Assembly: GCA_963730095.1 (NCBI GenBank)
Contig: CAVSQJ010000002.1
Span: forward strand, 1,923,779-1,987,778
DNA from: an uncultured Acidobacteriota bacterium
Lineage (GTDB): Bacteria > Acidobacteriota > Vicinamibacteria > Vicinamibacterales > SCN-69-37
Direction: 5' to 3'
Length of the DNA: 64,000 nucleotides
Shown in pieces: positions 11,441 to 55,723 of this stretch. Positions within the stretch are counted from its first letter, which is position 1. Each line of letters opens with the position of its first letter. The position numbers were made by a program, and so were the translations under genes. Below the pieces are notes generated by a model. It was not told where the DNA came from. It ran no database searches and saw nothing but the letters and a program-made list of their open reading frames with translations.

Positions 11441-11508
11441 GGCAATCGGGCAATGGAGGATCTGCGATGGCAGGGCCATTGCCGATCCCCCATTGCCGAT
11501 TGCCGATT
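11441..11508. repeat. GGCAATC/GGCAATG short-repeat hairpin
   Basis: Left arm GGCAATCGGGCAATGG (11441-11456). Right arm CCATTGCCGATCCCCCATTGCCGATTGCCGATT (11476-11508). The right arm overlaps the stop of the upstream permease gene. Confidence 0.8.
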
Positions 11509-37911: not shown

Positions 37912-37990
37912 GAAGTCGAAAAGTCGAAAAGTCGAAAAGTCGAAAAGTCGGGAAGTCGGGAAGTCGGGAACTGGAGAAGTCGGGAAGTAG
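37912..37990. repeat. ~10 tandem 8-nt units (AAGTCGAA x4, AAGTCGGG x3 and variants)
   Basis: GAAGTCGA AAAGTCGA AAAGTCGA AAAGTCGA AAAGTCGG GAAGTCGG GAAGTCGG GAACTGGA GAAGTCGG GAAGTAG. No complementary arm is present. Lies ~110 nt upstream of smc. Confidence 0.9.
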
Positions 37991-41824: not shown

Positions 41825-42176
41825 GGGCTTAAGGCTTAGGGCTTAAGGCTTAGGGCTTAAGGTGATGACCTGGGATTCCGGTTCTGAAGCGTTTGAGCGG
41901 CTTTGAGGAGACTGGCTTGGACGGCCTCGTACGTTGACGACGAGAGCGTCGGCGGCTTGAAAGGCTGACAGGCGTCGGTGATCTCTGCTCATGAGGGTCC
42001 ACTGAGCAAGCGATGTGCCGAAGGCAATTCGGGCTCTTTGTTGGGAGAGGGGCGCTCGACGTTGCAGAAACTGCCTACTCGCGAGGCCGCCTGCTTTGCA
42101 GGTTCTGCAACATCTCCGGCCACGGTTCGGAGCCCCAAGCCCCAAGCCCCAAGCCCCAAGCCTTAAGCCTTAAGCC
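41825..42176. repeat. 352-nt element: GGCTTAR heptamer arm and complementary CCCCAAG/CCTTAAG arm bracketing a ~270-nt core
   Basis: Left arm 41825-41862 reads GGCTTAA GGCTTAG x5. Right arm 42131-42176 reads AGCCCCA x4 then AGCCTTA x2. It fills the whole smc-M48 spacer. The core contains the internal inverted repeat GTTGCAGAA...TTCTGCAAC. Confidence 0.9.
41843..41992 (-). pseudogene. possible remnant of a four-helix-bundle (23S rRNA intervening-sequence protein family) gene
   Basis: The minus-strand ATG at 41990-41992 opens MSRDHRRLSAFQAADALVVNV(Y). This resembles the typical N-terminus of that family (..DHR.L.af..A..l...vY). Similarity is lost after ~22 aa. Recognised from memory, not searched. 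Confidence 0.3.
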
Positions 42177-43295: not shown

Positions 43296-45370
43296 GGAGT
43301 CGGGTGCTGGACGGGTAGCGCCGCGAGCGCCTGTCTCGCGGGCGCGAATTCCGGATCGATCGCGAGCGCGGCCTGCAGCTGCGACCTCGCGTCGGCGAAA
43401 CGACCGCGTTCGACGAGCAGTTGCGCCAGCTCGACGTGCCAGCCCGGCTCGGCGGCGTCCCGCGCGAGCGCCTGCGTCAGCTGGTTGATCGCCTCGTCGA
43501 TCTTGCCCTCGGACGCGAAGACGGCGGCGAGGTTGACGTGCGGCGAGGCGAGCGCGGGCGAGAGGGCGAGCGCCCGCTGGTCCTCGGCGACGGCCCGGTC
43601 CTCGTGGCCCGTCAGTGCCAGCGCCGCCCCGAGCCCGCTATGCGCCTCCGCCATGTCGGGCCGCGCCTCGACGGCCGCCTCATAGTCCGGCAGCGCGTCG
43701 GCGGCCCGGTGCTCGTTGAGCAGCGCCGCGCCAAGCCCCAGTTCCGCTTCGATCATCGACGGGTCCAGCCGCAAGGCCGTGGAGTACTCCGTCGTGGCCT
43801 CCGGGAGCCGCCCCGTGGCGGCGAGCACGTTGCCCAGATTCCCGTGCGCTTCGGCAAAGCCCGGATCGAGCTCGACCGCGGATCGGAACTCCGGCTCGGC
43901 GGCCGCCGGCCGGTTCCGGCCCGTGTCGACCAGTCCGAGGTTGTTGAAGAGCGTCGCGCGGTAGCGCGGCGACCGGCCGTCGGAGAACGCGAGCGCCTGT
44001 GAATACCCGGCGTACGCCTCATCGAGGCGGCCGAGGTCTCGAAGCGCCTCGCCCTGCTTCTCGTACGCGACGTAGTTGGCGGTCGTGACGCTCGCGGCGT
44101 GCTGCCAGAGCATCAGGCTGTCCGCCCAGTATCCGACTTGCGCGCGCGCGAGCGGCACGCACAGCGCCACGAGGACGAGCGCGGCGGCGCCCAGCGCGCG
44201 CTCGAACCTGGGCCCGGCCAACTGCGGCAGTCCCCACGCGGCCAGTACGAGCAAACCCACCATCGGCAGGTACATGTAGCGGTCCGCCGTGGCCTGCCCG
44301 CCAACCTGCACGAGGCCAGCGACCGGAGCCAGCGCCACGACGTACCAGAACCATCCGGTGACGCCCCACGGCGCGACCCGGCGCCAGCGCACGACGGCCG
44401 CGGTGATTGCCCCGAGCACGGCCGCGCCGGCGGCGACCGCCAGCCATCGAATCGGCGCCAGCGGATAGAACGGGGCCAGATTGATCGGCAACAACGTCTG
44501 CTTGAGGTAGGCCACGTATCCGTTGACCGCGTTGGCCAGACGCTCGTACCAGCGCAGGACGTCGAGGCGCGCGACCGTGCCGCCCTGGCTGAAGATCGTC
44601 ACGACGCCGACGGCTGCCGCGGCGCCGAGCAGCGGCACTTTTTCCGCGATGAGGCGAGTCCAGCCGACACCCGGGGCAGCGGGCGACGGCGTCCTCGCGA
44701 GCGGCCAGAAGTCGAGCAACAGGAGGAGGACCGGCAGCGTCACGACCATGGGCTTCGCCAGCAGCGCCAGCGCGTACATGGCGAAGACCGTGAGATAGCG
44801 AAGCACGGTCGGACGCTTGACGTAGGTCGTGTAGGCGAGGATGGCCACAAGCGCGAAGAAGGTGCTCAGCACGTCCTTGCGCTCGGACACCCAGGCCACG
44901 GACTCGACGTGAAGGGGATGTACGGCGAACACCGCGGCCACGAACGCGCTGCGCCAGAGCGTCCCGGTGAGCCGGTAGATCGCCGTGAAGAGCAGCAGCG
45001 TGTTGCCCAGGTGCAGCGCGAGGCTAGTCGCGTGATGCCAGCCGGCGTCGGCGCCGAACATCTCGACGTCCAGCATGTGGGACAAGAGCGTGAGCGGATG
45101 CCAGTTGCCGGCCACGACCGCCGTGAGCGCCCAGGACACGCTCGCGCGCGTCAGGCCGGCGAGGACGTGCGGGTTCGCCGAGACGTAGATCGGGTCGTCC
45201 CAGTTGACGAACGGAAACCCGTGGACGGGCCAGTACACCCCGAGCGTCAGGACGACCAGCGCGAGCGCGGTCAGCGCAAGGCGCGCCGGCGTCGCTCCAC
45301 GCGAGGGATCTGGCGCCGTCGGTACATTGGGTTGGGTGCGCTTACGGCCGCGCGCCTGGCGTGTGGACAT
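43292..45370 (-). CDS. membrane PMT/TMTC-like glycosyltransferase domain fused to TPR repeats
   Basis: 692 aa. The N-terminal ~420 aa are polytopic (...FVNWDDPIYV...HPLHVESVAWVSERKDVL...). The C-terminal part has ~8 TPR units. A 4-nt convergent overlap with the M48 gene. Confidence 0.8.
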   Translation of the reverse strand: MSTRQARGRKRTQPNVPTAPDPSRGATPARLALTALALVVLTLGVYWPVHGFPFVNWDDPIYVSANPHVLAGLTRASVSWALTAVVAGNWHPLTLLSHMLDVEMFGADAGWHHATSLALHLGNTLLLFTAIYRLTGTLWRSAFVAAVFAVHPLHVESVAWVSERKDVLSTFFALVAILAYTTYVKRPTVLRYLTVFAMYALALLAKPMVVTLPVLLLLLDFWPLARTPSPAAPGVGWTRLIAEKVPLLGAAAAVGVVTIFSQGGTVARLDVLRWYERLANAVNGYVAYLKQTLLPINLAPFYPLAPIRWLAVAAGAAVLGAITAAVVRWRRVAPWGVTGWFWYVVALAPVAGLVQVGGQATADRYMYLPMVGLLVLAAWGLPQLAGPRFERALGAAALVLVALCVPLARAQVGYWADSLMLWQHAASVTTANYVAYEKQGEALRDLGRLDEAYAGYSQALAFSDGRSPRYRATLFNNLGLVDTGRNRPAAAEPEFRSAVELDPGFAEAHGNLGNVLAATGRLPEATTEYSTALRLDPSMIEAELGLGAALLNEHRAADALPDYEAAVEARPDMAEAHSGLGAALALTGHEDRAVAEDQRALALSPALASPHVNLAAVFASEGKIDEAINQLTQALARDAAEPGWHVELAQLLVERGRFADARSQLQAALAIDPEFAPARQALAALPVQHPTP

Positions 45371-45381
45371 GTCGTGCCCGA

Positions 45382-45825
45382 CTACTTCCCTTCGACGATG
45401 AGCTTGCCCCGCGTCTCGCGCCGGCAGCGGGGGTCATTGGACAGATTACAGTAGATCTCGAACGTTCCCGCCTTGTCGGCCAGGAAGTCGAACATCACGG
45501 GCTTGCCCGGCTCCGCCCGCCGGCTGATTCGATAGTGGTCGTCGTCGATCGTGAAGCTGTGGGGGATGTCATCGGCGGAAAACGTGATCCGCACCATGTC
45601 GCCCTTACGGACGAGCAACTCGCCGCTATCGGAGCCCGAGACGCGGTATCCGTATTTGTGCGCGGACACGGCGAACGTCACGCGAGTCTGCGCGGCGACC
45701 ATCACCGCCCCGAGGACCACGATGCCGAACAGCGCGCCGAGCACAGCACCCGCCAGGCGGGGGCCGGTTTGGGAAGGCAGACGTACCACAGGCTCCTCCT
45801 GTTGAGTTCTGACGCGCCAGCCCAA
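45382..45825 (-). CDS. membrane-anchored cupredoxin-fold protein
   Basis: 147 aa with a TM anchor, then ...GDMVRITFSADDIPHSFTIDD...GTFEIYCNLSNDPRC.... His/Cys are spaced as in cupredoxin-like domains. Confidence 0.6.
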   Translation of the reverse strand: MGWRVRTQQEEPVVRLPSQTGPRLAGAVLGALFGIVVLGAVMVAAQTRVTFAVSAHKYGYRVSGSDSGELLVRKGDMVRITFSADDIPHSFTIDDDHYRISRRAEPGKPVMFDFLADKAGTFEIYCNLSNDPRCRRETRGKLIVEGK

Positions 45826-45857
45826 GAGCCGGCCGGCTGGGAGCCAATAGAGGTATC

Positions 45858-46026
45858 GGGAGATTGGGGATGGGAGATTGGGGATGGGAGATGGCCGATG
45901 GGAGATGGCCGATGGGAGATGGCCGATGGGAAATGGCCGATGGGAAATGGCCGATGGGAGATGGCAATCGGCAATCGTTCAATCTGCCAATTCCACCACC
46001 AATCACCAATCTCCCATCATCAATGG
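45858..46026. repeat. ~8 tandem 14-nt units (GGGAGAT+GGCCGAT type) plus short complementary arm
   Basis: GGGAGATTGGGGAT x2, GGGAGATGGCCGAT x3, GGGAAATGGCCGAT x2, then GGGAGATGGCAATC. The arm CAATCACCAATCTCCCATCATC follows at ~46001-46022. Lies between the pnp stop and the cupredoxin start. Confidence 0.9.
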
Positions 46027-46032
46027 TTATGG

Positions 46033-48253
<2,221 letters not shown>

Positions 48254-48261
48254 GAGAGAAG

Positions 48262-48293
48262 GTCAGAGATCAGAGGGCAAAGGGCAGAGGGCA
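48262..48293. repeat. CAGAGRG heptamer array in the rpsO-pnp spacer (GCCCTCT-type on the sense strand)
   Basis: GTCAGAGAT CAGAGGG CAAAGGG CAGAGGG on the plus strand. It ends 8 nt from the pnp start codon. Confidence 0.8.
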
Positions 48294-49601: not shown

Positions 49602-49660
49602 GGCAATGGGAGATGGGAGATGGGCAGATGGGCGATGGGCGATGGGCGATGGGCATGGGA
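49602..49660. repeat. GGGAGAT/GGGCGAT heptamer array
   Basis: GGCAAT GGGAGAT GGGAGAT GGGCAGAT GGGCGAT x3 GGGCAT. Begins immediately upstream of the truB start codon, in the nrnA-truB spacer. Confidence 0.85.
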
Positions 49661-51342: not shown

Positions 51343-51421
51343 AAGTCGTAAAGTCGGGAAGTCGATAGGTCGAGAAGTGAACCCTCATGTCACGCGGTCG
51401 ACTTCTCGACTTCTCGACTTT
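51343..51421. repeat. AAGTCGRR octamer hairpin
   Basis: Left arm AAGTCGTA AAGTCGGG AAGTCGAT AGGTCGAG AAGTG (51343-79). Right arm GTCGACTT CTCGACTT CTCGACTT (51397-51421). Fills the infB-DUF503 spacer. Confidence 0.88.
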
Positions 51422-55589: not shown

Positions 55590-55723
55590 GAACTGACCTC
55601 GGGTCAGGCCCGGCTGACGCCATTCGGGGCCAGACCCGCGCTCACACCACCGGCCCGAACTGGCCTCGGGTCAGGCCCGGCTGACGCCATTCGGGGCCAG
55701 ACCCGCGCTCACACTGCCGGCCG
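55590..55723 (-). repeat. tandem duplication (2 x 67 nt, 4 mismatches) of the GGGTCTGACCC-type double-palindrome element (copies 3 and 4)
   Basis: Copy at 55590-55656 and copy at 55657-55723. The reverse complement of each contains GGGTCTGGCCCC-GAA-TGGCGTCAGCC-GGGCCTGACCC. Together they fill the rimP-nusA spacer, sense-oriented relative to the operon. Confidence 0.9.

Follow-up and report, generated by a model that had tools for sequence, protein, structure and literature searches.

What is an array of eight 14-nt compound units, lying just behind pnp in the DNA of a soil bacterium: a microsatellite that grew where it stands, a structure serving the 3' end of the pnp transcript, or one copy of an element dispersed through the genome? 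The array falls in a window of 64,000 nucleotides (the whole stretch of DNA that was analysed) from a Vicinamibacterales MAG of 4.82 Mb and 67.5% G+C, in three contigs and 82.5% complete (G000). The original prediction, made from the window alone, had proposed that the array is related by sequence to other arrays in the window, through a common origin or a common constraint. The reading favoured here, with moderate confidence, is that the pnp array is an arm of a gene-less repeat hairpin, a relative of a GGGAGAT-armed cassette reshaped by slippage, and likely a substrate of RNase III. The array alone is one more case of heptamer repeats that have been known since the 1990s and never explained, and its value lies in its context.

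The array and its hairpin

The features of the pnp locus are as follows.
45382-45789, minus strand: small membrane-anchored cupredoxin-like gene, 135 aa (PF13473 with E 1e-4, below the curated cut-off; synteny)
45790-45857, minus strand: non-repeat leader of this downstream gene (12 orthologous spacers)
45858-45969, minus strand: long arm, eight 14-nt compound units (direct reading, TRF, shuffles)
45966-46032, minus strand: shorter 5' arm, G/U-rich in pnp-sense RNA (direct reading, MFE fold)
46033-48253, minus strand: pnp (PNPase, with two RNase PH domains, KH and S1; domain search, congener comparison)

The eight units at 45858-45969 are exactly as first described, each a pair of heptamers with graded variants. 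From 45858 the order is GGGAGATTGGGGAT twice, GGGAGATGGCCGAT three times, GGGAAATGGCCGAT twice and GGGAGATGGCAATC once, although exact copy numbers may be slightly off in an assembly with at least one indel (in pnp). TRF reported 45858-45965 with period 14, 7.7 copies, 94% matches and a score of 160, against best scores of 37-56, at periods 7, 8, 14 or 16, in 20 dinucleotide-preserving shuffles of the window. Arrays of at least three copies numbered 13 in the real window and 0-4 in the shuffles (n=20). The array is real and far beyond chance, and by merged locus length it is the second-longest of the genome's heptamer-based intergenic arrays.

The array was described as lying downstream of pnp, which is right as to position, but the stop codon of the gene needs correcting. 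Relative to three congeners, pnp has a one-base insertion near 46374 (46368-46380, minus strand), which splits the frame (AAGAGCCTAC here, AAGA-CCTAC in the three congeners), so that the S1 domain runs on in another frame to the real stop, TAA 46033-46035. The extra base may be an indel of the assembly; otherwise this essential-type gene is truly frameshifted. With the stop at this position, the repeats begin 7 nt after it and the spacer is 45790-46032.

In pnp-sense RNA the array is the C-rich 3' arm, (AUCUCCC AUCGGCC)n, the plus strand being G-rich, and the 5' arm consists of degenerate heptamers (GAUGGGA GAUUGGU GAUUGGU and so on). A shorter complementary segment had been noted after the array and is present (..CACCAATCTCCCATCATC, to 46024); the complementarity is partial, over a stretch that spans 45966-46026. 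The MFE fold of the pnp-sense RNA has 43 pairs, joining 46024-45967 with 45863-45920 in an interrupted stem. An imperfect hairpin takes up the spacer between pnp and the cupredoxin-like gene, and the array is its longer arm, not a free-standing microsatellite. Neither the hairpin, nor its place at a stop codon, nor a tie of the family to PF05635 gene cassettes formed part of the original prediction. Inverted terminal repeats that form a long stem, as in cassettes of the intervening-sequence (IVS) type, are found at the pnp site, and likewise in the congeners. No Rfam family was matched at gathering thresholds anywhere in the window.

Repeats are absent from the final 60-70 nt ahead of the small gene, which comprise a CGATACC boundary, a GC-rich stem and AGGAGG as the Shine-Dalgarno sequence; the gene probably starts with GTG at 45789. 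The outline of this leader recurs in other genera, so the repeat hairpin is inserted between it and the pnp stop. In the orthologous spacers as in the window (45790-45857), the cupredoxin-like gene comes after a conserved CGATA-type boundary with a GC stem and a GTCWGA..AGGAGG leader, which may be its promoter or 5' UTR. The gene order on the minus strand is DHH/DHHA1, truB, rpsO, pnp, the cupredoxin-like gene and a TPR gene, and the genes that neighbour arrays in the window (pnp, truB, DHH, a MacB/FtsX permease and an EF-G-like gene) have no common theme. A scan of 45300-46500 found neither a sigma-70 promoter nor an intrinsic terminator, that is, a GC-rich stem with a U-tract.

Termination at this site could in principle be Rho-dependent, the unpaired C-rich 14-mers acting as the loading site that ends the pnp transcription unit. 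Rho favours C-rich, G-poor, unstructured RNA, and the sense strand is 50% C and 14% G over about 80 nt, while the MFE fold leaves 52 of the 112 array bases without a partner. However, solo arrays of GGGNGAT and other families have no consistent C-rich-sense orientation, so a role of Rho could only be incidental to the pnp locus, and this account of the array is very improbable.

The pnp site in related genomes

The pnp gene and the small gene are adjacent throughout the family, and in all five of the other same-genus genomes (G001-G005) a hairpin with GGNGAT(T/C)-type arms comes right after the pnp stop. The element measures about 65, 95, 290, 350 and 600-640 nt in the congeners and about 175 nt in G000. 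Length variation, which had been proposed as a check, is therefore large at this orthologous site, from 65 to about 640 nt over six same-genus genomes. Other genera have an ordinary GC hairpin (several of them) or nothing here. One genus with good synteny thus allows the site to be traced, with a plain GC hairpin in other genera set against the repeat hairpin of this one, and the site has been occupied by a hairpin of this unit superfamily since the ancestor of the genus. No remnant of a gene for S23p (PF05635, the four-helix-bundle '23S rRNA intervening-sequence protein'), of the kind discussed below, was detectable in the pnp spacers of 12 genomes.

Compared with shuffles, the congener spacers fold with z values of -13 (G003), -10 (G002), -5.6 (G004), -5.0 (G005) and -3.1 (G001). 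Of the six, the hairpin of G000 folds most weakly (z = -2.3); six pnp spacers from other genera gave values from +0.2 to -2.4. The antisense strand of the pnp spacers folds at least as well as the sense strand and G-U pairs are few, so the complementarity is Watson-Crick at the level of DNA and gives no specific pointer to selection on RNA.

That the hairpin stands where other genera have a plain GC hairpin favours a structure selected by the host for the 3' end of pnp (a terminator, an attenuator or an exonuclease barrier) and built by happenstance of slippage-prone repeats, S23p genes having then invaded hairpin loops secondarily and not given rise to them. Against such a role, the site has no U-tract and no match to an intrinsic terminator, and the sense strand has no folding advantage. 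The spread of lengths at this single site, from 65 to about 640 nt, and frequent loss also sit poorly with a tuned structure. Further evidence on both sides comes from the arrays elsewhere in the genome and from the cassettes, and is taken up with them.

Repeat families across the genome and the genus

Intergenic DNA, called with a rough GC3-based gene model, makes up 13.6% of the genome, but holds about 60% of the 7/8-nt arrays. Periods 7 and 8 are the top non-triplet periods among tandem arrays of at least four copies (195 and 179 rows), and merging leaves 371 intergenic 7/8-nt arrays, spread over 278 spacers. Eight motif families account for 258 of the 371. Their sizes in G000 are given below.
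AAGTCGRR: about 92 arrays
GAAGTTN: 53 arrays
GGGNGAT: about 36 arrays
GGGCTATT: 22 arrays
CCAGGGT: 16 arrays
ATTGGGTT: 15 arrays
GGACCTT: 12 arrays
AAGGCTT: 12 arrays

A continuum of unit sequences had been named as the outcome that would speak against kinship between the arrays; genome-wide clustering gives discrete families instead and rules it out. Two loci in the window had been singled out as sharing heptamers with the pnp array.
49602-49660, unstranded: sister array in the spacer between the DHH-family gene and truB (GGGAGAT twice, GGGCGAT three times, and more)
11441-11508, unstranded: small GGCAATC / ATTGCCG hairpin
For the first the claim is correct, the heptamers being GGGAGAT and GGGCGAT. 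For the second, the shared part is the GGCAATC/ATTGCCG unit at the inner end of the array and nothing more. The broader claim, that such loci are related by sequence through common origin or constraint, is supported by the discrete families and by a compound motif described below.

An inverted partner, with the reverse complement of the unit as second arm, is present in 98 of the 278 array-bearing spacers (35%), and the median hairpin loop is 32 nt. Of the 72 hairpins, which represent about 25 unit types, 69 begin with the G/purine-rich arm and end with the C-rich one when either strand is read 5' to 3', a rule that the pnp hairpin obeys. Relative to transcription, solo arrays show a weak strand bias, the G-rich strand being, if anything, more often sense; a weak bias is expected, because a G-first hairpin reads alike on both strands. 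Arrays number 0.17 per spacer between convergent genes, 0.11 between tandem genes and 0.066 between divergent genes. In tandem spacers the median distance from the array edge to the upstream stop is 10 nt, and in convergent spacers the median to the nearest stop is 3 nt. That arrays hug stops, and are commonest in convergent and rarest in divergent spacers, is in keeping with a 3'-end structure. The distribution of array lengths is broad and tailed, with no peak at four units.

Turnover of the arrays was followed in two congeners. G000 and G004, whose proteins are about 80% identical, were compared over 400 kb of synteny with 214 orthologous spacers, of which 13 have arrays in both genomes, 17 in G000 only, 9 in G004 only and 175 in neither; chance would give about 3 shared ones. 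Many G000 arrays look like insertions next to stops where the G004 spacer is 9-31 nt long; the spacer that holds the 49602-49660 array is only 27 nt in G004. No target-site duplication was seen, by eye, at ten filled-versus-empty sites. For G001, which is about 84% identical to G000 in nucleotides, 16 arrays were mapped; 9 are common to both genomes, with differing copy numbers, and seven of these nine keep their family. Some orthologous spacers hold different unit families in sister species and appear to be hot spots, which also agrees with selection for a structure at the 3' end.

Unit variants are genome-specific, as counts of three tandem units on both strands indicate.
GGGNGAT: G000 28, G001 0, G002 0, G003 2, G004 0, G005 0
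GGNGATY: G000 4, G001 11, G002 40, G003 41, G004 8, G005 0
AAGTCGRR: G001 133; G002, G003, G004 and G005 0
GAAGTTN: G001 6, G002 30, G003 2, G004 2, G005 42
GGNGATY also gave 31 and 25 matches in two other genera and none in 42 of 61 family genomes. With reversed patterns as controls, almost every genome gave zero, and a few order-level genomes gave 1-12 matches. At two loci where the hairpins of G003 are built of GGYGATT, those of G000 have GGGAGAT or GGCTGAT units, so units are alike within a genome and unlike between genomes at the same site. The octamer family AAGTCGRR (in the window at 37912-37988 and 51343-51420) is common to G000 and its nearest relative G001 only; it is absent from the four other congeners, and the corresponding G004 spacers are 17-75 nt long and empty.

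These patterns bear on the possibility that the array is an ordinary microsatellite, grown by slippage from an arbitrary seed and unrelated to other arrays. Slippage typically leaves neighbouring units that are nearly identical and vary by degrees, copy number does vary at orthologous sites, and the excess of heptamers in GC-rich genomes is ascribed to polymerase slippage by Mrazek 2007, as that work is cited in PMC4692102. However, the units form discrete families, the variants are genome-specific at dozens of loci, and arrays look inserted beside stops where a sister species has a spacer of 9-31 nt. Neither the polarity seen in 69 of 72 hairpins nor the association with S23p genes follows from random seeds. 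The random-seed account is largely refuted and is left with a very small share of the probability.

By its tandem heptamers and placement, the pnp array belongs to a published kind, the closest being the heptamer repeats of Xanthomonas (GGGAATC) and Nostoc (GGGGAYT), with about 180 arrays per genome, some 90% of them intergenic (Rehm et al. 2015, PMC4692102). Many of those arrays form inverted pairs, lie near the stop of the upstream ORF and are rare between divergent genes; they occur at conserved gene pairs in sister species with widely differing length and sequence, show no link to gene function and have no known function (PMC4692102). The likeness here extends to heptamers of at least two units that are mostly intergenic, have inverted partners, are stop-proximal and are depleted between divergent genes. 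The differences are the GGGAGAT/GGCCGAT units, the many families (8- and 9-mers included), most of them without G-runs, the missing peak at four units, and arms that also bracket PF05635 genes, which do not figure in PMC4692102.

Because repeats of GGGAATC and GGGGAYT form G-quadruplexes in vitro and have a similar genomic distribution (Rehm et al. 2015, PMC4692102), the pnp array might be a G-quadruplex repeat of that type, which would influence transcription or replication by way of the quadruplex on the G-rich strand and an i-motif on the C-rich strand. Five runs of at least three G, 2-5 nt apart, do occur at 45858-45894, and 49602-49660 has at least eight G-runs with 3-5-nt loops. Over most of the pnp array, however, the loops between G-runs are 11 nt, and most families (GAAGTTN, AAGGCTT and GGACCTT among them) share the architecture with no G-runs at all. 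Array lengths show no preference for four units either, and a quadruplex as the basis of the array is quite improbable.

Several tandem heptanucleotide families scattered in intergenic DNA are likewise a trait of heterocystous cyanobacteria. The name given to them, STRR (short tandemly repeated repetitive), and the report on Calothrix are said to go back to Mazel et al. 1990. The phylum and the units differ from those here. A heptamer report on Calothrix PCC 7601 stands as ref. 39 in PMC4692102. The TAACTGA repeats of Beggiatoaceae, cyanobacteria and Bacteroidetes (MacGregor 2015, PMC4679880) are also abundant intergenic heptamer arrays, distributed patchily over the phylogeny and spreading by no mechanism yet known. 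They lie mostly just upstream of starts and are almost never inverted, whereas the arrays here are stop-proximal and commonly paired.

S23p cassettes and the proposed origin of the arms

The association with S23p genes is the interesting part of the finding. G000 has seven PF05635 matches, six of them bracketed by inverted arrays. In five of the six the arms belong to a major 7/8-nt family (GGGAGAT, GAAGTTN, AAGTCGRR, CAGGGTC/GGACCTT and ATTGAAG/CAATCTT) and in the sixth they are GGTACG-type 9-mers, no unit type being used twice. As background, only 19 of the 1859 genes that encode 60-250 aa are bracketed in this manner. The five congeners have 29 PF05635 ORFs, 24 of them with an array on each side; most of these pairs are clearly complementary, although two of the 24 look spurious. 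The S23p proteins group by arm family and not by genome, with 11 label changes (minimum 10) against a shuffled mean of 21.5, and none of 200 shuffles was as low as 11. This clustering could reflect vertical inheritance of each cassette and not a specificity of the protein for its arms. Among the papers searched, none links heptamer repeats to PF05635 genes and none treats repeats in Vicinamibacterales.

Two loci are central to the comparison with the pnp element.
G000 C2:168371-169105, after an upstream stop codon: GGGAGAT-armed S23p cassette
41826-42176 of the window, unstranded: hairpin with GGCTTAA ... AAGCCYY arms in the smc-M48 peptidase spacer

The cassette runs from a G-rich arm through a 136-aa S23p ORF (Pfam E = 2.3e-12; nearest solved structure 2RLD, E = 5e-7) and a 137-nt C-rich arm to a GC hairpin. 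Its right arm contains (ATCCCCC ATCAGCC) four times, where the pnp arm, read in the matching sense, has (ATCTCCC ATCGGCC) five to seven times. The pnp array and this arm are 81% identical without gaps, the left arms of the two elements share 74% of columns, and both elements have lopsided arms. Only three loci of the genome have the compound motif CCCATCRGCCATYNCCC, namely the pnp array, the right arm of the cassette and one C1 hairpin. The pnp arms are thus specifically similar to those of a gene-bearing copy in their own genome, which are the closest relatives they have there. A PF05635 ORF lies between the arms at C2:168371-169105 and none lies between those at pnp, so the pnp element is classed as a gene-less relative and not as a cassette. 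Its kinship with the GGGAGAT cassette, and its possible descent from a cassette, are read from the similarity of the arms, which are low-complexity sequence.

This S23p cassette, with arms of the GGNGAT type, lies at an orthologous locus in three species, G000 (C2:167075-170359), G002 and G003. The arms of these orthologous cassettes differ between genomes as their solo arrays do, and at dozens of loci the unit variant of each genome matches the arms of its resident S23p cassette. The cassette ORF of G002 points the other way with respect to its neighbouring genes, as recombination between the inverted arms would have it.

At 41826-42176, a 27-aa remnant of an S23p gene lies within the hairpin (41897-41974, minus strand). 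The orthologue in G004 (C1:2134747-2135415) has a frameshifted, near-complete PF05635 gene, flanked by heptamer arms with 18 and 12.7 copies. The site is a decay series from cassette to gene-less hairpin at a single locus.

This series from gene to remnant gives the direction, cassette to hairpin, at least once, which runs counter to S23p genes as late invaders of a host-selected 3'-end structure. The compound unit and lopsided arms of the pnp element, which match the cassette, count against such a structure as well, and with these points added it is rather unlikely as the explanation of the array.

The favoured reading, a gene-less relative of the cassette, can be set out as follows. The pnp element belongs to genome-wide hairpins whose arms are tandem units of 7-9 nt, the G-rich arm 5'. 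Within the genus such arms bracket small PF05635 genes, each arm family with its own S23p lineage, and the genus hairpin stands where other genera have a plain GC hairpin or nothing. Copy number and unit variants change quickly, presumably through replication slippage and exchange between copies, and the eight near-identical 14-mers may stem from recent growth of one arm or from a copied cassette arm. In the pnp co-transcript the interrupted stem would be cut by the RNase III of the genome, the gene for which is present, and the cut would part the pnp mRNA from the downstream gene. Cleavage of the predicted pnp stem is suggested by analogy with the S23p IVS of Coxiella, the 28-bp stem of which is cut by RNase III in vitro (PMC4990558). 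The ORF-bearing 23S rRNA IVS of Coxiella burnetii resembles the cassette at C2:168371-169105 in its inverted-repeat stem around a PF05635 ORF (PMC4990558). The pnp element, unlike an IVS, contains no ORF, lies in an mRNA spacer and not in helix 25 or 45 of 23S rRNA, and has tandem repeats as arms. If this reading holds, decay of S23p cassettes would explain, in a concrete way that can be tested, where a very common class of non-coding DNA in bacteria comes from, and many operons in these soil bacteria would be predicted to be punctuated by RNase III-sensitive stems.

A further proposal, possible but doubtful, is that the element is selfish, the S23p protein recognising its own arms and promoting their copying or homogenisation to stop-proximal sites, with no conventional transposase. 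The pnp array would then be a recent product of S23p-promoted copying, and the heptamer repeats of Xanthomonas and cyanobacteria would be explained as well. As part of this proposal, and just as tentatively, heptamer-armed hairpins and S23p cassettes would constitute a single, undescribed kind of element.

Other mobile elements offer partial parallels. REP/REPIN-RAYT systems and MITEs are, like the hairpins here, short, dispersed, non-coding and placed beside stops, with genome-specific variants and with gene-less copies that far exceed gene-bearing ones. The arms here differ in being tandem units of variable number, and the association with a RAYT or transposase and the target-site duplication are missing. 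The pnp element itself shares inverted arms with MITEs, but no target-site duplication was seen and no transposase was identified. In G000 the arrays have no linked transposase, RAYT or reverse transcriptase. A RAYT/IS200-type link was considered and rejected, as two Y1_Tnp (PF01797) genes have no 7/8-nt arrays within 2.5 kb of either. A reverse-transcriptase partner for an Avd-like S23p was set aside as well, no RVT_1 being found in the genome (82.5% complete). For a composite transposon, long-range inverted pairs around ordinary genes were about as common as direct pairs (27 versus 18), and the long-range pairs were therefore taken as chance neighbours. A likeness of GGUGAUC/GGGAGAU to the extended Shine-Dalgarno complement of the 16S 3' tail was judged to be at chance level, given the many families and rotations.

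Two further repeats were observed in the window. The rpsO-pnp spacer has a short AGGGCAA array of 2.9 copies at 48274-48293, and the same site in G004 holds AGGTCAGA in 5.2 copies; in E. coli this spacer contains the autoregulatory hairpin of pnp, which is cut by RNase III. At 55590-55722 there is a near-identical tandem duplication of 2 x 67 nt (TRF score 245), unrelated to the heptamer families.
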